IMG/VR virus record: IMGVR_UViG_3300018041_000003
Source: an uncultured virus (IMG/VR IMGVR_UViG_3300018041_000003)
Taxonomy: Duplodnaviria; Heunggongvirae; Uroviricota; Caudoviricetes
Reading direction: 5' to 3' (one strand)
DNA length: 20,000 bases
A program made the position numbers and the translations under genes. Positions within the stretch are counted from its first letter, which is position 1. Each line of letters begins with the position of its first letter. This document shows, piece after piece, positions 431 through 20,000 of the stretch. Below the pieces are notes generated by a model. It had not been told where the DNA came from. It ran no database searches and saw nothing but the letters and a program-made list of their open reading frames with translations.

Positions 431-871
431 ATGGCTAAATTTGCCCAAGGGCGATATAACCTCAAAAATCCAGACAAATACGTAGGACGCAAAACACCAC
501 TATATAGAAGTAGTTGGGAATTTGCTTTTATGAAGTTCTGTGATGAAAATCCCAATGTTGCTAAGTGGGCCAGTGAAGCAGTTAAGATACCTTATCTTAA
601 TCCGTTAACAGGTAAACACACAGTTTATGTTCCAGACTTCTTTATTGCATATGCAGATAAGAATGGCAAACAACGTGCAGAAGTAATTGAAGTAAAACCG
701 GATAATCAAACTACACTTGAAAGTGCAGGACGTAATAAGTATAAACAAGCACAAGTAGTACTTAATATGGCTAAATGGGAAGCCGCTAGAGCATGGTGTA
801 GAGATAAAGGACTATTTTTTAGAGTAATTACTGAAAAGGATATGTTCCATCAAGGAACACGTAAAGGCTAA
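431..871 (+). CDS. gp4: head completion nuclease, T4 gp4-like (TnsA-like PD-(D/E)xK fold)
   Basis: Motifs YRSSWE, WASE..IPY, YVPDF, IEVKP..QT and AKWEAA..WC...F...TE typical of gp4 homologues; GAGGTG SD. Confidence 0.85.
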   Translation: MAKFAQGRYNLKNPDKYVGRKTPLYRSSWEFAFMKFCDENPNVAKWASEAVKIPYLNPLTGKHTVYVPDFFIAYADKNGKQRAEVIEVKPDNQTTLESAGRNKYKQAQVVLNMAKWEAARAWCRDKGLFFRVITEKDMFHQGTRKG

Positions 872-7343: not shown

Positions 7344-8333
7344 ATGGCAACACTAGCAGAAATTCGTGCTAAACTAAAAGAACAAGAATCACGCACAGGT
7401 GGTTCTAATCAATCAACAAGCGGCGACAACGCCATTTACCCATTTTGGAACTTAAAGGAAGGCGAGCAGTCAACTGTACGTTTCTTACCTGATGGTGACG
7501 AAAATAACACTTTCTTTTGGAAAGAGCGTTTGATGATCAAACTACCTTTCGCAGGTGTTAAGGGTGAAACAGACTCACGTCCAGTTCAAGTACAAGTACC
7601 ATGTATGGAAATGTATGGTGAATCTTGTCCAATCCTAAGCGAAGTTCGCGGATGGTTTAAAGATCCAACTCTAGAAGATATGGGTCGTAAGTATTGGAAA
7701 AAGCGTTCATACGTATTCCAAGGTTTTGTAACTGAGAACGGTCTTAATGAAGACAAAACTCCAGAAAATCCAATCAGACGTTTTATTATTGGTCCACAAA
7801 TTTTCCAAATCATTAAGGGTGCATTAATGGATCCTGAAATGGAAGAACTACCAACTGATTATACAGCAGGAGTAGACTTTAGACTTATTAAAACTTCTAA
7901 AGGCGGCTATGCTGATTACTCAACATCACAATGGTCACGTAGAGAGCGTCCATTAACTGATGCAGAGATGCAAGCAGTTAACACAAATGGATTGTTTAAC
8001 ATGAGCGACTTTTTACCTAAGAAACCAGGTGAAGTAGAAGTTAAAGTAATGCAAGAAATGTTCCAAGCATCAGTTGACGGTGAAGCATATGATCCGGAAC
8101 GTTGGGGACAGTACTTCCGTCCAGCAGGGATGGCGGCACGTACAGGTGATCCGAATACTCAATCATCTGCTCCGACTACACCAGTATCGACAGCACCAGA
8201 GGCTACAACTACACCAGTAGTAGAAGCACCTGCGGCGCCAGCACCAGAAGTAGCACCGGTGTCGGCACCAGCAAGCGATAATGGTAAAGCCGAAGATATC
8301 TTGGCAATGATCCGTTCACGTCAAGCACAGTAA
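7344..8333 (+). CDS. gp32: single-stranded DNA-binding protein (T4 gp32-like)
   Basis: VRFLPD, CPI, YWKKRSY, IGPQIFQII, TDY..G.DF.L.KT.KGGYADYSTS motifs; Pro/Ala-rich linker; adjacent to uvsX. Confidence 0.88.
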   Translation: MATLAEIRAKLKEQESRTGGSNQSTSGDNAIYPFWNLKEGEQSTVRFLPDGDENNTFFWKERLMIKLPFAGVKGETDSRPVQVQVPCMEMYGESCPILSEVRGWFKDPTLEDMGRKYWKKRSYVFQGFVTENGLNEDKTPENPIRRFIIGPQIFQIIKGALMDPEMEELPTDYTAGVDFRLIKTSKGGYADYSTSQWSRRERPLTDAEMQAVNTNGLFNMSDFLPKKPGEVEVKVMQEMFQASVDGEAYDPERWGQYFRPAGMAARTGDPNTQSSAPTTPVSTAPEATTTPVVEAPAAPAPEVAPVSAPASDNGKAEDILAMIRSRQAQ

Positions 8334-8384: not shown

Positions 8385-9482
8385 ATGGCTAGTAAAGCAT
8401 TTGACGTTTCTAAGTTTCGTAAAAACTTAACTAAATCTATTTCAGGCATGAGTGCAGGATTTAACGATCCTACTGATTGGATTAGTACAGGTAACTATGC
8501 ACTCAACTTCCTTATCTCAGGAGACTTTAACAAAGGTGTTCCACTAGGTAAGGTAACTGTTTTTGCAGGAGAATCTGGTGCAGGTAAATCATATATCTGT
8601 GCAGGTAACATTGTAAAGGCGGCACAAGATCAAGGCATCTTTGTAGTTCTAATTGACTCAGAGAACGCACTTGATGAAACATGGCTACAGGCTCTTGAAG
8701 TTGACACAAGTGAAGAAAAACTTCTTAAACTTAATATGTCAATGATTGATGATGTAGCAAAAACAATTTCAACATTTATGGCAGACTATAAAGAAATGCC
8801 GGATGAAGAACGTCCTAAAGTATTATTTGTTATTGATAGTTTAGGTATGTTGCTAACACCTACTGATGTTGATCAGTTTAACAAGGGTGATATGAAAGGT
8901 GATATGGGTCGTAAGCCTAAGGCATTGACTTCACTTGTTCGTAACACAGTTAATATGATTGGCTCACACAATGTTGGCTTGGTATGTACTAACCATACAT
9001 ACGCATCGCAAGATATGTTCGATCCAGATGATAAGATTTCAGGTGGACAAGGATTTATCTATGCATCTTCAATTGTTGTAGCAATGAAAAAACTAAAACT
9101 AAAAGAAGATGAAGATGGTAATAAAATTAGCGAAGTGCGTGGAATTAGAGCAGGTTGTAAAGTAATGAAAACACGTTACGCAAAACCGTTCGAAGGCGTA
9201 CAAGTTAAAATTCCATACGAAACTGGTATGAATCCTTACAGTGGACTTGTTGATCTTTTTGAGAAAAAAGGTATGCTTGTTAAAGATGGTAACAGACTTA
9301 AATATGTTACTACTACAGGCGAAGAAGTTAAAGAATATCGTAAAGTTTGGGAAGCCGGCGGCACTTTATTAGATCAAGTCATGAATGACTTTAGTAACCG
9401 TGAGGAAGAACTAATTACAGATGAAGAGGTTCAAATCGAACCTGATGAAACTGTAGTACAGGAACCAGTAACTGAGGAGTAA
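8385..9482 (+). CDS. uvsX: RecA-like recombinase UvsX
   Basis: ISTGNYALN..ISG, Walker A GESGAGKS, IDSENA, Walker B LFVIDSLG, TNHTY, ISGG.G..YASS, KTRYAKPF; AAGGAG SD. Confidence 0.95.
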   Translation: MASKAFDVSKFRKNLTKSISGMSAGFNDPTDWISTGNYALNFLISGDFNKGVPLGKVTVFAGESGAGKSYICAGNIVKAAQDQGIFVVLIDSENALDETWLQALEVDTSEEKLLKLNMSMIDDVAKTISTFMADYKEMPDEERPKVLFVIDSLGMLLTPTDVDQFNKGDMKGDMGRKPKALTSLVRNTVNMIGSHNVGLVCTNHTYASQDMFDPDDKISGGQGFIYASSIVVAMKKLKLKEDEDGNKISEVRGIRAGCKVMKTRYAKPFEGVQVKIPYETGMNPYSGLVDLFEKKGMLVKDGNRLKYVTTTGEEVKEYRKVWEAGGTLLDQVMNDFSNREEELITDEEVQIEPDETVVQEPVTEE

Positions 9483-9490
9483 TTTGTTTT

Positions 9491-9718
9491 ATGGATAGTT
9501 CACAAGTTGTAGATATATGGAATCTTTTTAAAGAGCATACAGATAAGAAACATCTCGAAACACTTGCTGAAAGGTTTGTTGATCTTTTAGCAGATTATGG
9601 TGTTGGTGATGATGCGCTTAAAGATGCCATTGGTAACTGCGATTTCCTTGATTCAGCAATTAACTATTATCTTGATATAGATGAAGAACTAGTTTCAGAC
9701 GATGATGATTGGGATTAA
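9491..9718 (+). CDS. small acidic hypothetical protein (75 aa)
   Basis: GAGGAG SD; fills the gap between uvsX and uvsY; acidic tail DDDDWD. Confidence 0.8.
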   Translation: MDSSQVVDIWNLFKEHTDKKHLETLAERFVDLLADYGVGDDALKDAIGNCDFLDSAINYYLDIDEELVSDDDDWD

Positions 9719-9720
9719 TA

Positions 9721-10173
9721 ATGTGGTATAGCAAAATATCAAAAGATATTAGCCATATTCCAGATGCTATATCATACTTCGAAGCAGAACTTATTGAAGC
9801 AAAAAAAGAAATCCGAATTTATGGAAATCTAGAGAAGGCCGCGGCAGAAATGCCCGGCCTTGTCGAGCATCGTTTTAATCAATTACAAGAACTTGAAGCA
9901 ATACTTGAGTATCTTAATATCGAACTTCGTAGACTTCGTAGTAGTTTTTTTAAAAAATATCTTGAAAACTATCAACGTGCATTAAGCAGTCGTGACGTTG
10001 AAAAATACGTTGACGGTGAGGCAGACGTTGTTGACTACGAAAAGATTATTAACGAGTTTGCTCTTATGCGTAATAAATGGTTAGGAATCTCGAAAGGACT
10101 TGATCAGAAGCAATGGCAGATTACAAACATTACTAAGTTACGTGTAGCGGGCATGGAAGATGCATCAATTTAA
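9721..10173 (+). CDS. uvsY: recombination mediator UvsY-like (start revised to ATG 9721)
   Basis: 150-aa helical protein with LSSRDVEKYVDGEAD and KGLDQKQWQITNITKLRVAG, matching the UvsY C-terminal pattern; downstream of uvsX. Confidence 0.8.
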   Translation: MWYSKISKDISHIPDAISYFEAELIEAKKEIRIYGNLEKAAAEMPGLVEHRFNQLQELEAILEYLNIELRRLRSSFFKKYLENYQRALSSRDVEKYVDGEADVVDYEKIINEFALMRNKWLGISKGLDQKQWQITNITKLRVAGMEDASI

Positions 10174-10708
10174 CAATGAACTAGATACCCTTATGTCCAA
10201 AGTTAAAAAAGGACAAATGGAAAGATCCGAATATGCTTACATTGCCGAAAGACTTGGAAATAAAAATTTATTAATATTTGGTACTGGACATGATTCTCAA
10301 TTTTGGAGACACGCTAATACCGGTACTACAATTTTTCTAGAACATGATCCGGAATGGGTACTAGAAAAAACTAAAGATGTATTCTTAATTGAATATACAT
10401 CAAACATAAAAGATTATCAAAAACTATTAGACGAATACAATTCTAATAACTTTTCTAACTTAGAAATTACCTTACCTTCTGTTGTTTATGAGCACGAATG
10501 GGACGTAATATTTGTTGACGGACCTCCAGGAAATAAAAAGAAAAGTATCGGACGTATGCAAAGTATCTATATGGCTAATAAATTAGCAAATAAGAATACT
10601 GATATATTTGTACATGATTGTAATCGTATTGTCGAAGACGTTTATACTAAGGCATTCTTTAACATACAAGAAGAATTAGTTAAACTTAGACACTGTAGGA
10701 AAAAATAA
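10160..10708 (+). CDS. SAM-dependent methyltransferase resembling DUF579/GXM-IRX15 polysaccharide O-methyltransferases
   Basis: NLLIFGTGHDS..W, TIFLEHD..W, LP..VYE.EWDVIFVDGP.G, GRMQSIY.A, TDIFVHDCNR.VE...KAF and LRH are colinear with the DUF579 motifs as recalled. Confidence 0.8.
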   Translation: MHQFNNELDTLMSKVKKGQMERSEYAYIAERLGNKNLLIFGTGHDSQFWRHANTGTTIFLEHDPEWVLEKTKDVFLIEYTSNIKDYQKLLDEYNSNNFSNLEITLPSVVYEHEWDVIFVDGPPGNKKKSIGRMQSIYMANKLANKNTDIFVHDCNRIVEDVYTKAFFNIQEELVKLRHCRKK

Positions 10709-11448
10709 TGAATCGTATAATTTCTTTTGATCCTCGAGATCTAACATTTATTACAACTGCTAATAACTTATATGTTAATTTCGTAGAACCGTTTATATAC
10801 TTTTGTAAAACTAGTAATCCTGGTTGTAAGATTGAAATTTGGGTTGATGACTTAAATGCAGTATCAAAAATAAATGATCCAGATGTTAGAATTCATCAAT
10901 TACCAAACACTTATCATGTTGCAACATATAGATACATTTTAACACCAACTTGGGAAACTAAGTATTACTATATTACTGATGTAGATATAATGCATACTGA
11001 ATTTGTTCAACCATTTCATTTAATGCTTATGCAAGAATCTGGGTTGCCATTTAGTAATATTATACGCAACAAAAAAGGTCAACATAATCGTATGAGTGGT
11101 TTACATTTTGTAAAATCTCAATGGTACGAAGATACAAAAAATATAAGACCGCGAATTGAACCTAAAGGACAAGACGAAGAAATGTTATATCAGATTGCAA
11201 ATAGCATTTATGATTTAGGAAAAGTTACTAAAGGTTTATCTAATAGACCTGTACAAGGAATTCATTGTTCGGTAGGACGTAATCCTAGAGATAAACAATC
11301 GTGGGAACTTACATCACAACGATCGGCTTATTTTGTTGATGCAATTTTAAAACATGGAACATTTAATCCATGGTTTGAAGAAAAAGTATGTAGGCCAATA
11401 ATAGGCGAAGATACATTTGATAAAATGAGAAAACGTAGACGGATATGA
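10708..11448 (+). CDS. putative GT-A fold glycosyltransferase-like protein
   Basis: YYYITDVDI DxD motif after a hydrophobic strand, RMSGLHFV, DEEMLY; TAATG coupling. Confidence 0.55.
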   Translation: MNRIISFDPRDLTFITTANNLYVNFVEPFIYFCKTSNPGCKIEIWVDDLNAVSKINDPDVRIHQLPNTYHVATYRYILTPTWETKYYYITDVDIMHTEFVQPFHLMLMQESGLPFSNIIRNKKGQHNRMSGLHFVKSQWYEDTKNIRPRIEPKGQDEEMLYQIANSIYDLGKVTKGLSNRPVQGIHCSVGRNPRDKQSWELTSQRSAYFVDAILKHGTFNPWFEEKVCRPIIGEDTFDKMRKRRRI

Positions 11449-12056
11449 AGTTCAACATTGTAGTTGCTAGTGACATTAATTTAAAACGGTTTATTAATCC
11501 TTGCATTGACAGTATTAAGAAAATAGGATATGATCCAATGGTGTATGATCTTGGCGGACTAGGATATGGTAAGCCTTTTGAAAGTACAACTAGCGATAAA
11601 GCACTTCAGAAATTTCCTAAAAAGCCATTTGTTATTAAAGATGCATTACAACGTATTCCAAAAGATAGTTGGCTTGCATGGATTGATATTGATTGCATTA
11701 TGCAACACCCTATAGACGATGCTATTGGGGAGTATGACGTAGGAGTAACCTTTAGAAAAAATCATTTAAACTCTGGTGTAAATTTTTGGAAACACAACAG
11801 TAGAGCATTACACTTTCTAGATGTTTGGAGTAAAGAAGCATTACTAGTAGGTGGTGATCAAAACGGTCTTAATAGGATATGTAAAATTACATCTGGTTCA
11901 AGTGTTAACACTATACTTGATATTGAAGGTGCTAAAGTAAAAGTTTTTGATTCAAGAGTTTATAATAATTTCTTTTTCAAGAAAGATCAAAGTAACGCAA
12001 GAATACTACATTACAAAAGTAAGTTTAGAAATAGGTTTCCCTTTGATGAAGTATGA
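11445..12056 (+). CDS. putative nucleotide-diphospho-sugar transferase (GT-A; GT77/GT34-like)
   Basis: YDLGG, KKPFVIKDAL, LAWIDID (DxD), LNSGVNFW, GDQNGLN, YNNF, ILHYK; ATGA coupling. Confidence 0.72.
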   Translation: MKFNIVVASDINLKRFINPCIDSIKKIGYDPMVYDLGGLGYGKPFESTTSDKALQKFPKKPFVIKDALQRIPKDSWLAWIDIDCIMQHPIDDAIGEYDVGVTFRKNHLNSGVNFWKHNSRALHFLDVWSKEALLVGGDQNGLNRICKITSGSSVNTILDIEGAKVKVFDSRVYNNFFFKKDQSNARILHYKSKFRNRFPFDEV

Positions 12057-12630
12057 TTTTATAGAAATAGGAACTAGTAATTTTCATACATTGATTGAAA
12101 ATGCTAATAATGAAATTGGTATTTCGATCGAACCTATGAAAAAATATCTAGATCAGTTGCCAACTCCAAGTAATGTTATTAAGTTAAATTGTGCAATTAG
12201 TTTTGACGGTAGTAATAATTTGATTGATTTTTACTATATTGATCCTGATACTATTAAGCACCTCAACTTAAAACCTTTTATGAAAGGGTGTAACTCAATA
12301 GGAAACTATCATCCTATGCACATAAAATATAATGTACAAGAACACGTAACTATAGACAAGGTAGAACAACGTTCTTTAAAATCTGTTCTTGAAGAATATA
12401 ATGTTACCGAATTAGATTACTTAAAAATTGATACAGAAGGTGGCGACTGTAAAATCATGCAACAACTATATAACATTAAATTCAAACCAAAAAAAATTAA
12501 GTTTGAAACAAACAGTCTAGCAAACCCAGATGATGTTGCACATATACTAGATATATTTTCTAAAATTGGCTATGATATTAGTTGGGATAATAAAGCCAAA
12601 CGAGACACTATCTTAACATTGCATAGTTAA
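12046..12630 (+). CDS. FkbM-family SAM-dependent methyltransferase (start revised to ATG 12046)
   Basis: DFIEIGT, GISIEP, LNCAIS, LDYLKIDTEGGDCKIM, IKFE motifs. Confidence 0.85.
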   Translation: MKYDFIEIGTSNFHTLIENANNEIGISIEPMKKYLDQLPTPSNVIKLNCAISFDGSNNLIDFYYIDPDTIKHLNLKPFMKGCNSIGNYHPMHIKYNVQEHVTIDKVEQRSLKSVLEEYNVTELDYLKIDTEGGDCKIMQQLYNIKFKPKKIKFETNSLANPDDVAHILDIFSKIGYDISWDNKAKRDTILTLHS

Positions 12631-12633
12631 ATA
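12628..12633 (+). promoter_or_regulatory. late promoter box TAAATA, 6 nt before ATG 12640
   Basis: TTAAATA-TTGCTG-ATG overlapping the previous stop codon; no SD. Confidence 0.55.
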
Positions 12634-12639
12634 TTGCTG

Positions 12640-13386
12640 ATGAAACAGCAACTGATTAACCATATATTAGATAAATTCCCTGAAACATACGAACTGCAAA
12701 AGCAGTATAGAAGTCATCCTGACTACAGTTTATTAACATTAGAAAACTTTATTCCTCAAGATTTAGTTACACTAATGGCTAAAGAACTTGACGATATTCC
12801 ATTAGAAGACTGTAAGCATTTTACAAGAGCAGGATCGTGTATGTATGAATTTAACAATGTAGATCGTACACCTGTACAAGACGCTGTTGTACACGCACTA
12901 CACAGTGGTACATTTATTAAATGGTTACAAGAAGTTACAGACACAGTTGATTTAATTCCTGATCCGCATCTCATTGGTGCAGGATATATGAAATCATTTA
13001 CTGGCGATAGTTTAAAAGTTCACTCAGATTTTAACTGGAATGAACAACTTAGACTGCATCGTATGTTAAGTGTAGTAATATATCTCAATGATGAATGGCA
13101 AGATGATTGGGGAGGACAGTTGCAGTTTTATGATACAAAAAGACAAAAGGTACATACTAAAGTACCAGTAGGACCAGGCAACTGTGTAATATGGAACTAC
13201 AATAATTTTGCATTCCATGGTTACCCAGAACCAATGACTTGTCCCGAAGGTGTAAGCAGAAAGGGTATTAGGTTTTTCTATTACGTCAGTAATGCCAAGC
13301 ATGATGACAAACATCCACCACATCGTAGTTTATATTGGTATGATGAAAAAACAGGAACGCCATACGATCAGCCATGGAACAAATAA
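12640..13386 (+). CDS. 2OG-Fe(II) oxygenase (prolyl-hydroxylase-like)
   Basis: PDPHLIGAG, HSD (HxD), IYLNDEWQDDWGGQLQF, distal FHG and the 2OG-binding R in SRKGIRFFYY. Confidence 0.9.
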   Translation: MKQQLINHILDKFPETYELQKQYRSHPDYSLLTLENFIPQDLVTLMAKELDDIPLEDCKHFTRAGSCMYEFNNVDRTPVQDAVVHALHSGTFIKWLQEVTDTVDLIPDPHLIGAGYMKSFTGDSLKVHSDFNWNEQLRLHRMLSVVIYLNDEWQDDWGGQLQFYDTKRQKVHTKVPVGPGNCVIWNYNNFAFHGYPEPMTCPEGVSRKGIRFFYYVSNAKHDDKHPPHRSLYWYDEKTGTPYDQPWNK

Positions 13387-13892
13387 ACATTACATTACCT
13401 GAATTAAATTATATACGTTTGCCATATAGAGCAATGGATAACGTTTCAGTTCAGGGTAGAGCAACTGCATTTGAAAGTCAAAACAAACGATATCATCTTG
13501 CTGGATTTACAAAAGAAAACACAAAGTATGAACAATGTTTTCCTGTAACAGATGATTACGTACAGTTTGGTGCTACACTTTTTGATAGATGCACTGTAGC
13601 AGTAATGAAACAGATGCCTGGACAAACACTACCAAGTCATGTAGACACATTTTACAAAATTTCAAACGATTACAGTGTAGACCCGAAAGACTGTATTCGT
13701 GTAAACATCTTCCTTGAAGATTGGAAATCGGGTCATTATTTTGAAATAAATGAAAATCCGGTCTTGCAATGGAAGCGTGGTGATGCTATAATAATAGAAA
13801 AAGATGAACCGCATTTGAGTGCTAACAATGGTATGGTGCCTAAGTACACTATGCAAGTAACTGGAGTAAAAAATGAATTTAAGGGGTGCTAA
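13374..13892 (+). CDS. cupin / Fe(II)-2OG oxygenase-like protein (Asp/Asn beta-hydroxylase-like)
   Basis: MPGQTLPSHVD (HxD), RVNIFLEDWKSGH, WKRGD, PHLSANNG, KYTMQVTG. Confidence 0.72.
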   Translation: MEQINITLPELNYIRLPYRAMDNVSVQGRATAFESQNKRYHLAGFTKENTKYEQCFPVTDDYVQFGATLFDRCTVAVMKQMPGQTLPSHVDTFYKISNDYSVDPKDCIRVNIFLEDWKSGHYFEINENPVLQWKRGDAIIIEKDEPHLSANNGMVPKYTMQVTGVKNEFKGC

Positions 13893-14745
13893 ACCTGTAC
13901 CTGATAATAAGGTAAAACAGTTTATTGAAAGTTTAAATCCTGTAAAAGATTTATACAATCCAAAACTTCCACAAGAATTTAAGTACGAATTTGTAGATTG
14001 GATTTTATCAAGCGAATTTAATTTTATTAAAGGTATTGAAGAGTTTCCAGACATTACACTATGTAACGGAACTGTGCAAGCATTTGATCATTTCCATTAT
14101 AGGCACAAAGAAAAACGTTTTAGATTTTTTAAAGGCGAGTTTATGTATCATCAGGCTTGTCTAAAAAACGGAAGTCAATTTGAATGGATTAATGATAAAC
14201 CATTAATGGAAGGTGATGCACTTATACTAAGTGTCCCTTTCAGTGATAGAGGTATTCAACACCCTGCAACAGATATGTTGTTGTTAAATGCAGAACAGTT
14301 TAATATTCCTGTACTACTTGATTTTGCTTATTATCCTTGTACAAAAAATATTAATTTAAATCTTAGCAACTACCCAGCAGTAGAAACGATTACATTTAGT
14401 ATTAGTAAAGCATTCTACGGTGCAGAGTTTTTAAGAGTAGGTGTTCGTCTTGAACGTGCAAACACAGACGACGGCATTGATGTATTCAATTCTGTTGATA
14501 TGCACAATAGGATAGATTTAAGTATAGCAAGTAGTTTAATTAAAACCTTTCCGGTTGATTGGAACTGGAAAACATACACTGATGTATACAATCAAGTTTG
14601 TGAAGAAAAGAATCTTCAACTAACAGATTGTATTATGTTTGGTCTTGGCGGAGATGAGTACAAAGAGTATAATCGAGGCGGAGAAGTCAATCGTGTTTGC
14701 ATTAGTGATTTAATAGGAGAGAAAGTAAATGACAATAGTAAGTAG
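13873..14745 (+). CDS. PLP-dependent fold-type I enzyme (aminotransferase/decarboxylase-like)
   Basis: GTVQAF, SVPF, PVLLDFAY (PLP-binding Asp), FSISKAF (Schiff-base Lys), LRVG; GGAG SD. Confidence 0.75.
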   Translation: MNLRGAKPVPDNKVKQFIESLNPVKDLYNPKLPQEFKYEFVDWILSSEFNFIKGIEEFPDITLCNGTVQAFDHFHYRHKEKRFRFFKGEFMYHQACLKNGSQFEWINDKPLMEGDALILSVPFSDRGIQHPATDMLLLNAEQFNIPVLLDFAYYPCTKNINLNLSNYPAVETITFSISKAFYGAEFLRVGVRLERANTDDGIDVFNSVDMHNRIDLSIASSLIKTFPVDWNWKTYTDVYNQVCEEKNLQLTDCIMFGLGGDEYKEYNRGGEVNRVCISDLIGEKVNDNSK

Positions 14746-15790
14746 TCATAATGATTGGGATCCGTTAGAGGAAGTATTTGTAGGTATTGCAGATCATGCA
14801 CGTATTCCTACAGTGGATAAATCAACACACAGTTTCGGATTTGCTGATTGTAAATGGGAACACATTAAGGATCTTGAAGGACCTAGTCCAGAATGGGTAA
14901 TTAATGAAGCAAACGAGGATTTAGACAATTTTGCAAAAGTATTATCTGATTTAGGTGTTAAAGTAAGACGCCCCGAATCAATTGACCATTCAAAGGAGTT
15001 TGGCTCTCCTGACTGGAAAACAACAGGGTGGTACACGTATTGTCCGCGTGATTTATTGTTGCCTTTAGATAATCTTATTATTGATTGTCCCGGCGCAATG
15101 AGAGCAAGGCAGTACGAAACAACTGCGTACAGAGAATTTTTGTATGAAGCAATGCAAGGCGGTAGTGAATGGATTAGTGCACCACGTCCAAGACTACTTG
15201 ATGAAAGTTATCAGTTAGAGGATTTAAGTATTCCAACACTTGTAAACAAAGAGATTGTTTTTGACGCACCTAACATTGTACGCCTTGGTAAAGATTTATT
15301 GTATCAAGTAAGCAACAGTGGAACTAAATTAGGTTACGAATGGCTTAAAACTATTGTTGAACCAAGAGGTTATAAGTTGCATCTTGCTGAAGGCTTTTAT
15401 AGTTATTCACACTTTGACTCAACTGTTATTCCTTTACGTCCGGGATTAGTATTGTTTAATGGTGATAGAATTAGACCAGACTTTTATCCTAAAATCTTTG
15501 AGTCATGGGACAAAATTTATTTCCCAGGTGATAAAGTAATCGACATTGGTACAAACTTACCAAATGGTGTATCACCTTGTAGTAAGTATATCGGTTTGAA
15601 CTTTATGAGTGTAAATGAAAACTTGGTAATCTGTGATGAGAATCAAGAAGAACTACGTAAAGAGTTAGACAAACACGGTATTGAAACTATCGGATTGCCT
15701 ATGCGTCAAGCACGTACACTAAGTGGCGGCTTCCATTGTGTTACTTTAGATACTAAACGTAAAGGCACATTGGAAAGTTACTTTGACTAA
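14729..15790 (+). CDS. amidinotransferase (StrB1 inosamine-phosphate / glycine amidinotransferase family)
   Basis: SHNDWDPLEEVFVG, GVKVRRP, YCPRD, catalytic Asp in FDAPN, His in SHFDST and Cys in GGFHCVTLD; AGGAG SD. Confidence 0.93.
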   Translation: MTIVSSHNDWDPLEEVFVGIADHARIPTVDKSTHSFGFADCKWEHIKDLEGPSPEWVINEANEDLDNFAKVLSDLGVKVRRPESIDHSKEFGSPDWKTTGWYTYCPRDLLLPLDNLIIDCPGAMRARQYETTAYREFLYEAMQGGSEWISAPRPRLLDESYQLEDLSIPTLVNKEIVFDAPNIVRLGKDLLYQVSNSGTKLGYEWLKTIVEPRGYKLHLAEGFYSYSHFDSTVIPLRPGLVLFNGDRIRPDFYPKIFESWDKIYFPGDKVIDIGTNLPNGVSPCSKYIGLNFMSVNENLVICDENQEELRKELDKHGIETIGLPMRQARTLSGGFHCVTLDTKRKGTLESYFD

Positions 15791-16646
15791 ACGCGGACAC
15801 CATATACCCAATCTTGAATATATGATCACAACCAGTTGCGATCTGGCTTGTCCAGGTTGTGACCGGTTTATTGATCACGGACATCCGTTTGTAGAGTCGT
15901 ATGAAGACATAGTTGCTAATATGGAAAAATGGTTCTGTCGATTAGATCCAGACCACATAACTATTATTGGTGGCGAACCTCTTCTTCATCCACGGATTTA
16001 TGATATCCTAAAAGAAGCAAGAAGGATATTTGATCATGCAACTATTGAAGTATACACAAATGGATTTTTATTACCTAAAAGGCCCGATATACTTAAGGTA
16101 TTAAAAAAAATTGGTCGTGCAAAAATTAGTTGTAGTATACACAATAAAAATCCAGAAGTAAGAAAATTAATTGAAAAAAATTTATGGGATTCGTTTTATA
16201 GTAAAGGACAATGGTCAATAGTAAGTCCTATTGCTCATAAACAAGACGGAGTAACTGTTGAAGTAACTGATCCTACCGAAGGTGGTTGGTATGATTATCG
16301 ACGCAATGTAAATGGCAAACTTAAACCTTGGAACGATCAACAGCCTTCTAAGAGTTACAGCAAGTGTGGTGTTTCTACATATCCTATTATCTATAAAGGT
16401 AAGTTATACAAGTGCCCACCTATTAGTATGTTAAAGACACACCTTGAAAAATTTGATATGTTAGACGATCCTGATTGGAAACCATATTTAAACTACAAAG
16501 GATTAGATGTAGAGTGTGATGACGAGGTATTAGAAGCATTTGTAAAAAATATCTTCCATCCACATCAAATTTGTTCTATGTGTCCTGCTAATCCAGAACT
16601 AAAACCGCAGGAAGAAGCAGTAATTAAAAACGTGAAAATACTATGA
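15783..16646 (+). CDS. radical SAM enzyme with C-terminal twitch/SPASM-like cysteines (TTG start; alternative ATG 15822)
   Basis: CDLACPGC (CxxxCxxC), IIGGEPLLHP, VYTNG, C...GKLYKCP, ICSMCP. Confidence 0.9.
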   Translation: MTKRGHHIPNLEYMITTSCDLACPGCDRFIDHGHPFVESYEDIVANMEKWFCRLDPDHITIIGGEPLLHPRIYDILKEARRIFDHATIEVYTNGFLLPKRPDILKVLKKIGRAKISCSIHNKNPEVRKLIEKNLWDSFYSKGQWSIVSPIAHKQDGVTVEVTDPTEGGWYDYRRNVNGKLKPWNDQQPSKSYSKCGVSTYPIIYKGKLYKCPPISMLKTHLEKFDMLDDPDWKPYLNYKGLDVECDDEVLEAFVKNIFHPHQICSMCPANPELKPQEEAVIKNVKIL

Positions 16647-17797
16647 AAACAGTTCCTTTAATAACAATGGACAATAGTTCCAGAAGCCTTGGAACTGTTA
16701 TTGAAAACTTCAAAGGCATTCTTAACTTTGAAGGTTATAATAATAAGATACTAGAGGATATTGAACATCTTGTAGTATTTTTTGAATATGTTGGAGACAA
16801 TGATCATACATTTAAAACATTTACTAACTTTTTTGAAACATATAAAATTCCGACCTTTCTTGTTATCGATGACTCATACGAAGGACTTACAGACTCTACA
16901 TTTCTTACGTTGGTAGAAGAGACTGTTAAAAAGAATCCTTATATTAAAGATTGGGTTATTTTAACTAATAACAAAAAGTTAAAGAGTCCGAACAAAATAT
17001 ATTTTAATGTACAATTACACTTAGACCGATATGACGGCATTGACATTAATAAACATATTGACACAGACTGGAACGGTAATAGTAATTTACGTAAGAAAAA
17101 GTTTTTATGCTTAAACAGACAAGAACGATTGCATAGGTTAATAACAACAGACTTCTTGTTAAAAAATGATATTGCTAAACATACATATCTTAGTTGTCCA
17201 TTAGGTAATTACAAATACGTCCTTGATGGAGAATTTGATCAACCTGAATATAAAAAATATTTAGATAAATCATTACAAGGCACAACCCTAAGTCAAGAGT
17301 CAATTAACCGTCTTAAAGAAAACTTACCTATTAGTTTAGACTTAGATGAAACAACATATAAATCTATGTCTAGAAATCTGCCAGACGGTAGTCAATACTA
17401 TGCTGAAAGTTATTTTAGTATTATTACAGAAGGTGACTACGATGACGACAATAGAGAAGCATTTACAGAGAAAGTATTAAAATGTTTCTTGTTCAAGCAT
17501 CCGTTTATTGTTATTGGATTGCGTAACACACTACAGCAATTACGCGACTTAGGATTCATAACTTTTAATGATGTTATTGACGAAAGATATGATGCAATGT
17601 CATTTGCTAGGCATCGGTTTGAATTAGCAACAGCAGAAATTAAGAAACTAAACAGTTATAATATTCACGAATTAAGAGACTTATATAATGAGTTACAACC
17701 TATTCTTAATTATAACAGAGAACACTATCTACGATTGTTTAATCAAAAACAACCAGTAGAGTTAATACATAGAATTAAGAAGTTCGTAAATGATTAA
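16643..17797 (+). CDS. hypothetical protein, possibly glycosyltransferase-like (384 aa)
   Basis: KKFLCLNR..R.HR and SIITE...FTEKVLK...HPFIVIG...LRDLGFITF...DERYD; the TEK segment recalls GT10-type donor-binding motifs (weak); ATGA coupling. Confidence 0.55.
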   Translation: MKTVPLITMDNSSRSLGTVIENFKGILNFEGYNNKILEDIEHLVVFFEYVGDNDHTFKTFTNFFETYKIPTFLVIDDSYEGLTDSTFLTLVEETVKKNPYIKDWVILTNNKKLKSPNKIYFNVQLHLDRYDGIDINKHIDTDWNGNSNLRKKKFLCLNRQERLHRLITTDFLLKNDIAKHTYLSCPLGNYKYVLDGEFDQPEYKKYLDKSLQGTTLSQESINRLKENLPISLDLDETTYKSMSRNLPDGSQYYAESYFSIITEGDYDDDNREAFTEKVLKCFLFKHPFIVIGLRNTLQQLRDLGFITFNDVIDERYDAMSFARHRFELATAEIKKLNSYNIHELRDLYNELQPILNYNREHYLRLFNQKQPVELIHRIKKFVND

Positions 17798-18713
17798 TAA
17801 TAAATTCTTTGTTAGGCACATTACACTGCTTTGCTACATCAATTAATTGTTTCTGTTCTTCCTTGTCAAGCAGTGCTATATCAAGATGTAAAGGATATGT
17901 TAATACGTTTATATACCAACGTACATCTTGAAAACGTCTGCAAAAGTCATTTAGTTTTTCTAAACCCATATAATTGTTTTTGTGTAACACAGTATTAAAT
18001 TCTAAATTAAAACTTTTGTCGTAAACCCAGTCAATAAACTTAACCACGTCGGCCCACTTAGTACCGCCTCTAACTTTTTCTGCAAGTTCTCCAGTGCCGT
18101 CGATGCTTAGAATAAATGTAACATCTTTGTATTGATTTAGTTCCTTAACTATATCGTCATTAGGAATAAATGTTCCATTCGTATTGTATATTACCGTTAC
18201 TTTACTTTTGTGTTTAATTTGATATAACAATCGCAGATGTCTATCTGTAATTAATGGCTCACCGCCTAAAAATAAAATCTTTTCAATTGTATCAGGAACG
18301 TTGGTTACTGCATCAATCTCCATTAACTTGTGTTTTGGTGCTCCATAAATGTTTTTTTCTTTTACAATCCAACTTGTACTAAACTCTGAATTACATCCGT
18401 CGCAAGTTAGGTTGCACAAGTTATCAAACCCAATTTCTAAAAATTTAAGTTCAACGGAATTAGTATCATATTTTTCATTAAATTCTTGGCGTAGACTTTT
18501 GTGTTGTATTGATTCTTCATAATAACATTTTTCACAACCTGGTATACGTTCGCCTGACTCGCTTTGTTGTCGAAGTTCCTTGTATGCATCAGAGTGCAAT
18601 ATGTTGTCTACATTTCCATCAAACGTATCAATAGAATGTTTAAATCGGCAACAAGGATAGACTCTATTGCCACTACGTATATTAGTGTGTTTCCAAAATG
18701 CACTACACTTCAT
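17775..18713 (-). CDS. radical SAM enzyme with N-terminal SPASM/twitch-like domain
   Basis: N-terminal C...YPCC...GCEKCY, then NLCNLTCDGC (CxxxCxxC), FLGGEPL, YNTNGT, LSIDG. Confidence 0.9.
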   Translation of the reverse strand: MKCSAFWKHTNIRSGNRVYPCCRFKHSIDTFDGNVDNILHSDAYKELRQQSESGERIPGCEKCYYEESIQHKSLRQEFNEKYDTNSVELKFLEIGFDNLCNLTCDGCNSEFSTSWIVKEKNIYGAPKHKLMEIDAVTNVPDTIEKILFLGGEPLITDRHLRLLYQIKHKSKVTVIYNTNGTFIPNDDIVKELNQYKDVTFILSIDGTGELAEKVRGGTKWADVVKFIDWVYDKSFNLEFNTVLHKNNYMGLEKLNDFCRRFQDVRWYINVLTYPLHLDIALLDKEEQKQLIDVAKQCNVPNKEFIINHLRTS

Positions 18714-19119
18714 AATATGGAATCCATTTATCGTCTAAATCTTTTTGTAAGCATTTGGTTGCTAAATCTAGAAACGGTTTATAATCTATTTTGGTTTTAT
18801 CTTCATTACGTAATGGATCAAAAACAAATATGTTGCTTCTGTTTGTAATGTCTAATTCATCTGTATGTATGTTTAAGAACACCGGTTTGTTGGTGTCTAA
18901 GACGCATTTTAAAGCGCCTACACTGCATATAACATAGTCAGCACTATCAAACATAGCCTCTAGGTCTTTCTGGTGCTTATAAGACGTTTTAACAAGGTTT
19001 ACACGTTCTTGTAACCAATTTGTAAGATGTGTTTCTAATACATTATCGTTAAGAGGCAACATCAATACATAACTAAATTTATTTTGGTTTGCATCTTTGA
19101 ATAATTTTTCAATGTTCAT
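18703..19119 (-). CDS. hypothetical protein (138 aa)
   Basis: ORF coupled to both minus-strand neighbours (ATGA overlap and 11-bp overlap). Confidence 0.75.
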   Translation of the reverse strand: MNIEKLFKDANQNKFSYVLMLPLNDNVLETHLTNWLQERVNLVKTSYKHQKDLEAMFDSADYVICSVGALKCVLDTNKPVFLNIHTDELDITNRSNIFVFDPLRNEDKTKIDYKPFLDLATKCLQKDLDDKWIPYYEV

Positions 19120-19709
19120 TTCTTAATGATTTCTAAATCAAATGTAATTATACTTAGAGGATTTTCACTTTGATTTGGCGTAGTGCTTATATCAAAATAT
19201 CCAGGAATAAAATATATTTCACCCTCGGGCATAGGCAAATATGTTTGCCAACTATTAAGTGCATTTCTATTTTCTATAGGAATACTATTGTAGTAATATT
19301 CACTAGCAGGATTATCAACAACTAATCCTCCACTCTTAGGATCACTAGTTACAAAATACATACCGGTATAAAAACTTTGGGTATTTTTCTTTTTAGTTAA
19401 ACACCCACCTGGCATAATACATTGTATCGTCGACCGTGTTATGGCAATATGCTGACCTTGTTTAATATCAAATTCTTTAAAAATAGTTTTACAGAATTCT
19501 TTAATTTCTTCACTTTCACTAATATGCTTAAATGCATTATTAGTTTGGAAGTTGTCTTTACTTTGCCAAGTGTTAATATGTTGAACATTTGTATTGTTTG
19601 ATTGCTTTTGGAAATCTTCAACCAGTCGTCCAAACATAGCCTTTACGTCAGCGTGTTTAGCAAACGTACTGTGATACATAGTGTTTACAAAAATATTCAA
19701 TTGATCCAT
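19116..19709 (-). CDS. 2OG-Fe(II) oxygenase-like protein (TIGR02466-like) lacking metal ligands; start revised to ATG 19709
   Basis: WQS, PGG, YTGMYFV..P..GGLVVDNP, PEGEIYFIPGY, TPNQSE...IITFD follow the family pattern, but the His ligands are absent. Confidence 0.7.
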   Translation of the reverse strand: MDQLNIFVNTMYHSTFAKHADVKAMFGRLVEDFQKQSNNTNVQHINTWQSKDNFQTNNAFKHISESEEIKEFCKTIFKEFDIKQGQHIAITRSTIQCIMPGGCLTKKKNTQSFYTGMYFVTSDPKSGGLVVDNPASEYYYNSIPIENRNALNSWQTYLPMPEGEIYFIPGYFDISTTPNQSENPLSIITFDLEIIKK

Positions 19710-19714
19710 ATACA

Positions 19715-19720
19715 TACTTA
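19715..19720 (-). promoter_or_regulatory. late promoter variant TAAGTA, 5 nt before the minus-strand ATG at 19709
   Basis: Minus strand reads ATAAGTA-TGTAT-ATG, the same geometry as the TAAATA sites. Confidence 0.6.
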
Positions 19721-19772: not shown

Positions 19773-20000
19773 ATGAAAGTAGTATTAGTAACAGGTGGTT
19801 TTGATCCACTACACTCAGGGCATATTGCCTATCTTAAAGAAGCAAAAAAGTTAGGCGACAAACTTATTGTTGGTGTAAACAGTGATGCCTGGCTAACACG
19901 CAAGAAAGGCAGACCTTTTATGCCTTTTGAAGAGCGTGTTGCATTAATACGAGAAATGAAAATTGTAGATAAAGTAATCGGATTTGACGATGCAGATAAT
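19773..20000 (+). CDS. cytidylyltransferase-family nucleotidyltransferase (TagD/RfaE-like), 5' part; not in the ORF track
   Basis: Hand translation MKVVLVTGGFDPLHSGHIAYLKEAKKLGDKLIVGVNSDAWLTRKKGRPFMPFEERV... contains the HxGH motif and VGVNSD; runs off the window. Confidence 0.92.
   Translation, partial: MKVVLVTGGFDPLHSGHIAYLKEAKKLGDKLIVGVNSDAWLTRKKGRPFMPFEERVALIREMKIVDKVIGFDDADN

Follow-up and report, generated by a model that had tools for sequence, protein, structure and literature searches.

A compact DUF579-family protein in the post-uvsY cassette of T4-like jumbo phages, probably a sugar O-methyltransferase acting on a phage-built glycan

We propose that a 182-residue protein of the DUF579 (IRX15/GXM) family, encoded in a 20,000-nucleotide stretch of DNA from an uncultured virus (the window), is probably a soluble and catalytically competent SAM-dependent sugar O-methyltransferase, a cytoplasmic enzyme that tailors a glycan built by the phage itself. 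The enzyme would transfer a methyl group from S-adenosylmethionine to a sugar in the cytoplasm of the infected cell. The glycan would be built by the phage's own glycosyltransferases and nucleotide-sugar enzymes and then tailored by the DUF579 protein, and the product, we infer, would be an O-methyl sugar on that glycan. As judged by sequence, membership in the family is solid; the glycan role is assigned because of the gene context and of domain fusions in bacteria. The gene is a constant member of a variable cassette that follows uvsY in a T4-like jumbo-phage lineage of roughly 350 kb.

That the gene belongs to a phage, as a sequence-only reading of the same DNA had supposed, is borne out by the contig, which carries gp15, tail sheath, large terminase, gp32-like SSB, UvsX and UvsY. 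The open reading frame (ORF) has an ATG start, which is supported because homologues start at the same position (alignment A1), and its first 14 nt are shared with the end of uvsY. Its TAA stop overlaps the following ATG as TAATG, so the proposed coupling to the next gene holds. All the motifs quoted in that reading are present in the translation: NLLIFGTGHDSQFW at residues 36-49, TIFLEHDPEW at 57-66, LPSVVYEHEWDVIFVDGPPG at 105-124, GRMQSIYMA at 131-139, TDIFVHDCNRIVED and then VYTKAFF at 147-167, and LRH at 176-178. The protein matches PF21729 (IRX15/IRX15L/GXM) with an E-value of 1.8e-31 and 109.6 bits, against a cut-off of 27.8, over residues 28-167 and profile positions 9-174 of 189, and a six-frame profile search of the contig likewise finds this family. 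No other Pfam family is reported at E <= 0.01. The agreement of the motifs with PF21729 is, at the level of the sequence, far above chance.

PHROGs has no family for the protein, PDB sequence and profile searches return only chance-level matches, and there is no sequence match to the COMT/CCoAOMT or TylF/MycF types (Pfam at E <= 0.01; PDB sequence and profile searches); the likeness to cation-dependent O-methyltransferases is one of fold only. In a set of 117 distinct viral and bacterial domains, with plant members left out, 21 residues are conserved in at least 96% of the sequences, and the phage protein keeps every one (L38, F40, G41, G43, D45, W49, T57, F59, E61, Y79, P106, D115, I117, D120, P122, G124, G131, R132, D153, R156 and E159). 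The description of the protein as compact and without an N-terminal membrane anchor agrees with a maximum 19-residue Kyte-Doolittle hydropathy of 0.72 and no predicted span, by a crude test whose threshold only one of six N-extended bacterial homologues used as controls passed.

The AF2 model of the protein (pLDDT 95.3, pTM 0.91) has a seven-strand Rossmann layout, and its top PDB fold matches are all class I methyltransferases. The best solved match is MeT1 of Mycolicibacterium hassiacum (PDB 6g7d/6g80), a polysaccharide class I methyltransferase acting on sugar hydroxyls, with a Foldseek E-value of 7e-5 and a VIA Z of 13.4 (rmsd 3.0 A over 149 residues); we take it to be the sugar O-methyltransferase that serves methylmannose polysaccharide synthesis. 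It is followed by MycE, MycF, SpnH and SpnK, which are Mg-dependent sugar O-methyltransferases, and by enzymes of the COMT/CCoAOMT type (Z 11.4-12.1). Ranking by fold is not discriminating, because the tRNA and rRNA methyltransferases TrmR (Z 12.8), TrmI and RsmC tie with the sugar enzymes within about 1-2 Z units. MeT1, MycE, MycF, SpnH and SpnK are only 10-15% identical to the phage protein and share no Pfam family with it; what they have in common is the fold and likely the chemistry, not membership.

Glycine-rich motif I and an acidic residue ending strand 2 serve SAM binding in class I methyltransferases. Both are found in the model, where G41-x-G43-x-D45 comes after strand 1 and E61 closes strand 2, and these residues would bind SAM. 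R156 and E159 may contact the sugar. By analogy with COMT/CCoAOMT-type enzymes, D120 and D153, which end strands 4 and 5, may hold a metal. The enzyme probably needs a divalent metal; Arabidopsis GXMT1 reportedly depends on a divalent cation (Co2+). Sequence, profile and fold searches found no solved DUF579 structure in our copy of the PDB. For a family of importance to plant biomass, a first structure and mechanism could conveniently be sought in this soluble, anchor-free protein of 182 residues, whose fold is predicted very confidently.

The glycan context of the domain can be observed in viruses and bacteria alike. In 12 of 16 diverse viral DUF579 loci a glycosyltransferase or nucleotide-sugar gene lies within 3.5 kb or is fused to the domain. 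The same loci also show sulfotransferase, pyruvyl transferase and Methyltransf_24 genes, the last of these next to DUF579 in 5 of the 16. The remaining four have no glycan genes nearby. In locus L028, DUF579 is flanked by the two halves of a split DNA polymerase. Long bacterial DUF579 proteins carry fused glycosyltransferase domains (E <= 1e-4) in 15 of 21 cases, 10 of them above Pfam cut-offs, and a fused Methyltransf_24 in 6 of 21. One viral locus, L048, also has DUF579 fused to a glycosyltransferase domain, and these fusions tie the domain to glycans. Bacterial members (from filamentous cyanobacteria, Chlamydiota, Gemmatimonadota, Alphaproteobacteria and others) are 32-44% identical to the phage protein over the best aligned segment, share the 21 conserved residues, occur in glycan contexts and often have GT1/GT2 or Methyltransf_24 domains fused to them. 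Unlike the phage copy, many belong to multidomain proteins as long as 1,403 aa or are extended at the N-terminus.

The better known members are those of plants. GXM1-3/GXMT1, PtrGXM1-4 and AGM1/2 belong to the same Pfam family, PF21729, and have colinear motifs and a glycosyltransferase context. Recombinant poplar GXMs methylate GlcA on xylan, and IRX15 and IRX15L belong to the DUF579 family with catalytic activity not established (PMC3921138, in the text available). The plant 4-O-methyltransferases are described in the same partial text as type II membrane proteins of the Golgi, anchored at the N-terminus, whereas the phage protein is soluble. Our literature search turned up no study of a bacterial or viral member, and none appears to have been characterised.

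To call the phage protein plant-type, as had been suggested, is misleading. PF21729 is present in 61 of 61 database relatives of the protein, and the domain is encoded by at least 175 bacterial species genomes (confirmed loci) and at least 65 viral contigs. In a profile search that included divergent members (A2), the best 120 of 363 matches are all bacterial or metagenomic. The family is widespread, and its members are already labelled by public pipelines. On the plant-trained model TIGR01627 (A_thal_3515) the phage protein scores 95.6 bits, below the trusted cut-off of 149.85, and substrate specificity can therefore not be transferred from plants. The cut-off is reached by none of 26 viral proteins and by 12 of 35 bacterial ones, chlamydial and cyanobacterial copies especially looking closer to the plant model; the phage copy lacks both a score at that level and the N-terminal anchor. 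In our tree, which is unrooted and built from viral and bacterial rows without plant sequences, so that TIGR01627 scores stand as a proxy for plant likeness, the window's copy sits in a virus-only clade. The further suggestion that it may inform the origin of the family is weakened by this position and by the more plant-like bacterial copies, and the phage copy adds little on the origin of the plant family.

The DUF579 gene and its neighbours open a cassette of 16.2 kb and 21 ORFs, inserted into a T4-like jumbo-phage backbone with uvsY on one side and a helicase on the other (Table 1). A hydropathy analysis predicts membrane spans in none of the 21 ORFs.

Table 1. Genes of the window from uvsY to its right end, with the main evidence for each.
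Positions	Strand	Feature	Evidence
9709..10173	+	uvsY-like recombination mediator, left backbone flank	phrog_231 E 1.5e-15; 45% identical to XaC1_358
10160..10708	+	DUF579/PF21729 (IRX15-GXM family) soluble class I SAM-dependent methyltransferase (predicted), 182 aa	PF21729, AF2 fold
10708..11448	+	GT-A-fold glycosyltransferase-like, 246 aa, coupled to DUF579	AF2 pLDDT 91.3
11445..12056	+	nucleotide-diphospho-sugar transferase glycosyltransferase (PF03407, GT77-type), 203 aa	E 1.9e-6, 28.5 bits vs 22
12052..12630	+	FkbM-family methyltransferase, second of the module	PF05050 Methyltransf_21 E 1.8e-10
12634..13386	+	2OG-Fe(II) oxygenase, opens separately conserved middle module	PF13640 E 4.9e-15
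13374..13892	+	172-aa ORF, very weak cupin hint	Cupin_2 E 0.22 only
13873..14745	+	290-aa ORF, lead: PLP-dependent aminotransferase class I/II-like	Atlas, no Pfam match
14729..15790	+	353-aa ORF	no significant family
15783..16646	+	radical SAM enzyme	PF04055 E 1.3e-16
16643..17797	+	384-aa ORF	no family
17775..18713	-	twitch/SPASM-domain radical SAM enzyme	NF033640 E 5.8e-62, 210 bits vs 170; PF04055 + PF13186
18703..19119	-	138-aa ORF	no family
19116..19715	-	2OG-Fe(II) oxygenase-like	PF13759 E 8.9e-4 and TIGR02466 25.7 bits, both below cut-offs
19773..20000	+	5' part of cytidylyltransferase-like/mannose-6-phosphate-isomerase-C (cupin) fusion, 255 aa	PF01467 E 2.1e-17

Both genes directly downstream of DUF579 are glycosyltransferase-like, as had been read from the sequence, one by its Pfam match and the other by its predicted fold. 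For the latter, the 246-aa protein, Pfam, PHROG and NCBIfam give no match, and its GT-A identity is settled by the structure prediction, whose top Foldseek matches are GlyE 5gvv (E 5.9e-6), LgtC, glycogenin and ABO transferases. Its D91-x-D93 is invariant in 31 homologues. An hhalign comparison of its alignment with GT8 and PF03407 gives probabilities of 0.2 and 0.1, with profiles of only 4-6 sequences. The Atlas lead for the same ORF is to GT8/Nucleotid_trans clusters.

For the FkbM-family gene, ATG 12052 is preferred over TTG 11947 because the homologue in locus L011 has 197 aa; TIGR01444 gives it 29.9 bits, below cut-off. The oxygenase that opens the middle module is 88-91% identical in loci L007 and L010, and is absent from L011-L017. 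The possible PLP enzyme scores 0.99 by Atlas features against viral clusters with PF00155 in 12-27% of their members, which we treat as a lead only. The fusion gene cut by the end of the window is complete at L148:2061-2828, where it has PF01467 and PF01050; the next ORF is a PF01501 GT8, followed by six more soluble ORFs up to the helicase. The pair formed by the fusion and the GT8 is kept in L011-L017. PHROGs has no family for the six scanned ORFs downstream of DUF579 (10708-14745), and a lenient Pfam search of 11 unannotated cassette ORFs gave nothing solid.

DUF579 lies shortly after uvsY in every related locus that spans this position (L007-L019 and L022). The association with the two glycosyltransferases, to which the sequence-only reading had linked its function, is not conserved: L014-L018 keep DUF579 after uvsY with other neighbours. 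Cassettes of sister phages carry a sulfotransferase, a pyruvyl transferase and several methyltransferases. The cassette is absent from the cultured relative XaC1, in which PF21729 has no match; the control genomes have none either, and the same search recovers the gene in the window's contig. A tblastn search of the protein against 50,697 GenBank phage records gave no match, and a DNA megablast against GenBank phages matched only the XaC1 RecA-like gene. In uncultured jumbo phages the DUF579 gene flags a large, variable sugar cassette inserted in the replication module. Knowing where the glycan goes (virion, host envelope or DNA) would help to explain the abundance of carbohydrate genes in T4-like marine phages.

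One destination, possible if somewhat unlikely, is the host envelope. During infection the cassette would remodel the LPS O-antigen, capsule or exopolysaccharide of the host, as a means, for example, of blocking superinfection; on the inner side of the membrane, DUF579 would methylate host-bound, lipid-linked intermediates. Such a role is what is usually proposed for the large gene sets for "cell wall synthesis and modification" in T4-like cyanomyoviruses (PMC12801897, in the text available). The T4-like cyanomyoviruses S-SCSM2R, S-SCSM1 and P-SSM2 have many glycosyltransferases, a cytidylyltransferase and nucleotide-sugar enzymes, and the available part of that source mentions no DUF579 gene in these sets. 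LPS-type GT8 and GT25 accompany DUF579 in viral loci, and the bacterial homologues are fused to polysaccharide-type GT1/GT2 domains. Against it, a flippase, a polymerase, an initiating transferase and other membrane proteins are absent among the 21 cassette ORFs, and remodelling of the host surface would therefore have to rely wholly on host machinery.

The all-soluble 16 kb cassette may also be a self-contained cytoplasmic glycan factory with which these salt-marsh T4-like phages (~350 kb) would coat their own virion proteins, a tentative and on the whole unlikely proposal. The coat glycan would be methylated here, and in sister phages also sulfated and pyruvylated, and the fast-evolving, swappable module of DUF579, glycosyltransferases and methyltransferases would set the surface chemistry of the particle. 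If true, this would give bacteriophages an equivalent of the glycans on giant-virus fibrils and capsids. PBCV-1 A064R has a rhamnose O-methyltransferase as its domain 3, in a virus-encoded cytoplasmic glycan assembly, and the Mimivirus fibril glycogene cluster includes methyl-, pyruvyl- and glycosyltransferases (PMC9614988, in the text available), as sister phage cassettes likewise hold a pyruvyl transferase and methyltransferases. PBCV-1 and Mimivirus, however, infect eukaryotes, and their capsid and fibril glycans were determined experimentally; nor does the available part of the same source report the giant-virus methyltransferases as DUF579 proteins.

Concerning the sugar, the sequence-only reading had favoured 4-O-methylation of glucuronic or another uronic acid installed by the adjacent glycosyltransferases, in the manner of plant GXM/AGM. 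We find no support for such specificity and consider it quite unlikely. All characterised DUF579 enzymes do methylate GlcA on xylan or arabinogalactan (PMC3921138; PMC7237498 citing Temple 2019; both in the text available), R156, present in all 117 domains, could bind a carboxylate, and the operon includes a PF03407 glycosyltransferase, GT77-type enzymes and DUF579 acting together on plant arabinogalactan (PMC7237498, in the text available). But the phage protein lies in its virus-only clade, far from plant-like members, and sister phages retain DUF579 with other genes in place of the neighbouring glycosyltransferases. No cassette gene indicates uronic acids, the sole nucleotide-sugar gene being the cytidylyltransferase/MPI-cupin fusion. 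UDP-glucose 6-dehydrogenase (PF03721) is found in none of five related fragments, which are 12-31% complete, so that this is no evidence of absence, and the host could supply UDP-GlcA.

It is very unlikely that the glycan is placed on phage DNA bases, as in T-even phages, with DUF579 methylating a DNA-linked sugar to evade restriction. The cassette does lie inside the replication and recombination module, with SSB, UvsX and UvsY on one side and the helicase on the other, its proteins are all soluble, and the contig also encodes a T4 gp1-like dNMP kinase. The oxygenases, radical SAM enzymes and possible PLP enzyme of the middle module, and the L028 gene between its polymerase halves, point in the same direction. 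Against this, the scanned ORFs, which come from incomplete fragments, include no hydroxymethylase, TET/JBP-type oxygenase or T4-type alpha/beta-glucosyltransferase, and the sulfotransferase and polysaccharide pyruvyl transferase of sister cassettes fit a polysaccharide or glycoprotein better than DNA.

Finally, that DUF579 is no sugar methyltransferase, and is instead a non-catalytic IRX15-like scaffold or an RNA, protein or small-molecule methyltransferase sharing the fold, is most improbable: RNA methyltransferases rank about as high by fold, no activity has been demonstrated for the DUF579 proteins IRX15/IRX15L (PMC3921138, in the text available) and 4 of 16 viral loci lack glycan neighbours, but the SAM-motif and putative catalytic residues are all kept, PF21729 is the only sequence family matched, and the glycosyltransferase fusions in bacteria and in L048 link the domain to glycans.

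Regulatory signals in the window are not enriched. The T4 late-promoter consensus TATAAATA occurs 0 times in 20 kb against 3.2 expected, which has no bearing on timing, and there are 43 sigma-70-like promoters against 57.8, and 7 terminators against 5.1, in shuffled sequences. Read depth in RNA libraries is higher over SSB and UvsX than over the cassette, a depth of a kind that cannot rank genes. Expression of the DUF579 gene is possible, the RNA-library contigs being such as may also stem from DNA carry-over; contigs of all four metatranscriptome runs cover the gene, and one of them bridges the uvsY/DUF579 junction.

The open reading frame that begins at the end of uvsY encodes a DUF579 protein (PF21729, formerly DUF579, the family of IRX15, IRX15L and GXM). 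All of the motif strings quoted in the sequence-only reading are present in its translation, and its assignment to the DUF579/GXM profile stands: the match to PF21729 has an E-value of 1.8e-31 and 109.6 bits (gathering score 27.8) and spans positions 9-174 of the 189 in the profile; PF21729 is the only Pfam family that matches the protein at E ≤ 0.01. The DUF579 motifs are confirmed as real, far beyond chance. The plant-trained model of the same family, TIGR01627, gives 95.6 bits (E 3.6e-27) and does not reach its curated cut-off of 149.85. The gene shares its first 14 nt with the end of uvsY, and its TAA stop runs into the ATG of the next ORF.

The DUF579 family is not plant-specific. In the protein database, 61 of 81 candidates are relatives, every one annotated PF21729, the best non-identical one being 74% identical; some are on contigs of 209-346 kb, and JGI's pipeline names several of them 'glucuronoxylan 4-O-methyltransferase'. 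The domain in such proteins is already assigned by public pipelines. A profile scan of IMG/VR gives 65 DUF579 loci, giant-virus bins among them. In prokaryotes, taking one genome per species, 175 of 207 candidates are confirmed as DUF579 loci, of which we kept the best 80; filamentous cyanobacteria (Okeania, Trichodesmium, Arthrospira/Limnospira), Chlamydiota, Gemmatimonadota and Alphaproteobacteria are at the top of the list. The domain was already listed for an Arthrospira genome in 2010 (PMC2853384).

Can the phage gene tell us about the plant enzymes? A maximum-likelihood tree (IQ-TREE quick search, LG+C20) was computed from the 117 rows left when 28 of the 145 input rows had been dropped (26 identical to another row, 2 short). 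In this unrooted tree without plant rows, whose bacterial rows had been chosen beforehand by their similarity to the query profile, the window protein falls in an all-viral clade of 16 rows (SH-aLRT 99), half of them (8) belonging to its own T4-like lineage and the other 8 to different viral contigs, and viral rows form at least five separate groups: a long-branched one of 9 that includes giant-virus bins, one of 7, the window's 16, 4 among cyanobacterial rows, and 2 singles. We take the TIGR01627 score as a proxy for how close a member is to plants. None of 26 viral proteins (46.5-122.5 bits) reaches the cut-off versus 12 of 35 bacterial ones (87.8-180.1 bits), the highest being a Parachlamydiaceae protein. 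By this proxy many bacterial copies are more plant-like than that of the phage, so that 'plant-type' is misleading for it, and the suggestion that it may inform the origin of the plant family is weak. The highest scorers, all above the cut-off, are chlamydial (loci L100, L073, L093, L094 and L092) and filamentous cyanobacterial (L068, L070 and L077) proteins. If the plant family has a prokaryotic origin, these chlamydial and cyanobacterial sequences would be better source candidates than phages.

The AlphaFold2 model of the DUF579 protein, built with 30 aligned relatives, has a seven-strand Rossmann layout (pLDDT 95.3, pTM 0.91). Among solved structures, Mycolicibacterium hassiacum MeT1 is the closest in fold (Foldseek E 7e-5; VIA Z 13.4, rmsd 3.0 Å over 149 residues), and the next are the sugar O-methyltransferases MycE, MycF, SpnH and SpnK together with enzymes of the COMT/CCoAOMT type (Z 11.4-12.1). 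Because tRNA and rRNA methyltransferases tie in this ranking (Z 11.5-12.8), the fold alone indicates a class I methyltransferase, with no more than a leaning to the metal-dependent O-methyltransferases. In a set of 117 distinct domains (38 viral, 79 bacterial), each of 21 residues is kept in at least 96%, and the window protein has them all. Among the 21, G41, G43 and D45 follow strand 1, E61 ends strand 2, D120 follows strand 4, and D153, R156 and E159 follow strand 5. If class I and COMT-type enzymes are taken as a guide, G41-x-G43-x-D45 and E61 would bind SAM, D120 and D153 would hold a metal, and R156 and E159 may face the acceptor. Arabidopsis GXMT1 is reportedly Co2+ dependent. No DUF579 structure was found in the PDB by sequence, profile or fold search, and the window protein is a handy soluble representative for a first one.

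The virus record in IMG/VR is 42,602 bases long, with a CheckV completeness of 12%; related records of 90 and 115 kb are 25% and 31% complete, which implies genomes of about 350 kb. Among the genes on the contig are those for a T4-type gp15 tail-sheath stabiliser, tail sheath, dNMP kinase, large terminase and virion protein, along with a gp32-like SSB, UvsX and UvsY, a structural and replication gene set that indicates a T4-like myovirus. Among 50,697 GenBank phages, the only DNA-level relative is the cultured Xanthomonas jumbo phage XaC1 (349 kb), through a RecA-like gene with 72% identity. XaC1 has the same backbone in the same order (terminase, structural protein, SSB, RecA-like, UvsY homologue, helicase); its UvsY homologue is 45% and its helicase 48% identical (E 3e-165) to those of the window phage. 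The UvsY-helicase interval in XaC1 is 1.1 kb with two small ORFs and no PF21729 gene is found in that phage, versus 16.2 kb and 21 ORFs here, from window position 10174 to the helicase at L148:8673, L148 being a stretch of the contig that reaches past the window end. The DUF579 gene thus opens a large insertion in a conserved replication/recombination module. This cassette extends past the window end (G000:C1:19461-35671; L148:1-8672). Over SSB/UvsX the G+C content is 0.41-0.42, and it falls to 0.30-0.33 at 10-12.5 kb. Elsewhere in the window, the TnsA-like protein may be a homing-type or mobile-element nuclease.

Features of the window and of the cassette
Feature	Position	Strand	Description
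TnsA-like endonuclease N-terminal domain protein	431-871		PF08722, E 5.2e-23; upstream of terminase
gp32-like SSB	7344-8333		Pro/Thr/Ala/Val-rich linker ahead of C-terminal tail, residues about 270-310
UvsX/UvsY	8385-10173		
DUF579 ORF	10160-10708	+	ATG start, 182 aa
GT-A-like ORF	10708-11448		246 aa; directly after DUF579
Nucleotide-diphospho-sugar transferase	after GT-A-like ORF		PF03407, E 1.9e-6
FkbM methyltransferase	after PF03407 gene		E 1.8e-10
Middle block	12634-19715		in order: 2OG-Fe(II) oxygenase, cupin-like, PLP-aminotransferase-like, unknown, radical SAM, unknown, twitch radical SAM, unknown, second oxygenase-like ORF (2OG-Fe-like)
ORF unk172	13374-13892		172 aa
Last block	after middle block		cytidylyltransferase/mannose-6-phosphate-isomerase-C fusion, GT8, then six unannotated ORFs

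The two GT-like genes claimed downstream are borne out, one by a predicted GT-A fold and the other by its PF03407 match. The first has no Pfam, PHROG or NCBIfam match; its model (pLDDT 91.3, from an alignment of 31 homologues) resembles the retaining GT-A glycosyltransferases GlyE (E 5.9e-6), LgtC, glycogenin and the ABO transferases, and D91-x-D93 is invariant in the alignment. For one of the middle-block unknowns, the Atlas gives a lead to viral clusters that are PLP aminotransferase-like. No membrane span is predicted in any of the 21 cassette ORFs, the DUF579 protein among them (the highest 19-residue hydropathy is 1.34), in agreement with the anchorless protein described earlier; the test is a crude one, its threshold being passed by only one of six control proteins, N-extended homologues from bacteria. 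The cassette would thus encode no flippase, polymerase or polyprenol-phosphate transferase.

In sister phages of the same lineage (loci L007-L019 and L022), SSB is 66-82%, UvsX 73-93% and UvsY 75-92% identical to the window phage, and the DUF579 gene, always shortly 3' of uvsY where the locus covers that position, 46-72%. The GT-A and PF03407 genes are retained in L007/L008, L010 and L011-L013, with an FkbM homologue in all of these except L010. Both GT genes are absent from L014-L018, where a Methyltransf_24 gene flanks DUF579; in L017 the flanking genes also include a sulfotransferase, an FkbM gene and a polysaccharide pyruvyl transferase. Such neighbours imply that glycans of sister cassettes may carry sulfate and pyruvyl groups besides methyl groups. 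The Sulfotransfer_2 and polysaccharide pyruvyl transferase genes lie beside DUF579 at L017:6068-6706 and L017:9129-9896, and at L031:10741-11484 in a further locus. The cytidylyltransferase/isomerase fusion and GT8 are kept throughout the lineage loci. The oxygenase/radical-SAM block is missing from L011-L017 and is 88-96% identical where present (L007/L010); unk172 is 71% identical in L007/L008. From this distribution the block looks like a separate module that may have nothing to do with the glycan genes. Divergence is faster in the DUF579, GT and methyltransferase genes than in the core genes beside them: relative to L010 the former are 58-61% identical versus 91-93% for UvsY and UvsX, and across sister phages the genes at 10160-12630 are 58-77% identical versus 88-93% for UvsX/UvsY.

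The association with glycan genes extends to other viruses and to bacteria. At 16 diverse viral loci the DUF579 ORF passes PF21729 in every case, and at 12 a GT or nucleotide-sugar gene is within 3.5 kb or fused; these neighbours include GT2, GT8, GT25, GT32-like, GDP-mannose dehydratase, DegT aminotransferase and CMP-sugar synthetase-like genes. One locus has a GT2-DUF579 fusion (L048:7263-8531, 423 aa), and three viral proteins of 446-556 aa (L033:6891-8543, L047:6843-8510, L046:7185-8522) carry DUF579 at the C-terminus after 250-370 residues that match no Pfam family. The four loci without such genes in that range are L053, which looks like a giant virus, L049 and L058, which are uninformative as to context, and L028. 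In L028 (1460-4617) the DUF579 gene lies exactly between the two ORFs of a split family B DNA polymerase, the exonuclease with the N-terminal polymerase part and then the C-terminal part. Among long bacterial DUF579 proteins, 15 of 21 carry GT domains at E ≤ 1e-4 (10 above Pfam cut-offs, 5 below), and these fusions are the strongest argument for DUF579 acting on glycans. Methyltransf_24 is present in 6 of the 21. It is fused to DUF579 in cyanobacteria (L069, L074, L076, L078, L080, L082) and encoded beside it in viral loci L015, L017, L020, L037 and L046, a recurrent pairing that suggests a two-methyltransferase unit.

We consider that the DUF579 protein is probably a soluble SAM-dependent sugar O-methyltransferase that would tailor a glycan assembled by enzymes of the phage in the cytoplasm. 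Where would this glycan go? Virion glycosylation has precedents: Freeman in 2023 is said to have described it in mycobacteriophages, which we count as one. In giant viruses, glycogene clusters combine methyl-, pyruvyl- and glycosyltransferases (PMC9614988). Remodelling of the host envelope is the usual proposal for cyanomyovirus carbohydrate genes (PMC12801897), but the cassette lacks any predicted membrane or export protein. Sugar modification of DNA is suggested by the position of the cassette in the replication module, but the signature enzymes are not seen. As to the acceptor, glucuronic-acid methylation is the only activity known in the family (PMC3921138; PMC7237498), but specificity of the window enzyme for it is unlikely, and the proposed uronic-acid methylation finds little support, because the phage branch lies far from plant-like members, its partner GTs are exchangeable, and none of five related fragments, all incomplete, has a uronic-acid gene.

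Full-text literature searches gave plant-centred papers among their matches and none that deals with a DUF579 enzyme from a phage or a bacterium; the gene is a marker of an uncharacterised phage glycan cassette. The stretch is found in salt-marsh metagenome runs and partly in metatranscriptome runs. RNA-library contigs cover the DUF579 gene at low depth in all four libraries compared, which, given possible DNA carry-over, is only a weak hint of expression. One of these contigs (X17 record 19, 10012-10455) bridges the uvsY/DUF579 junction.
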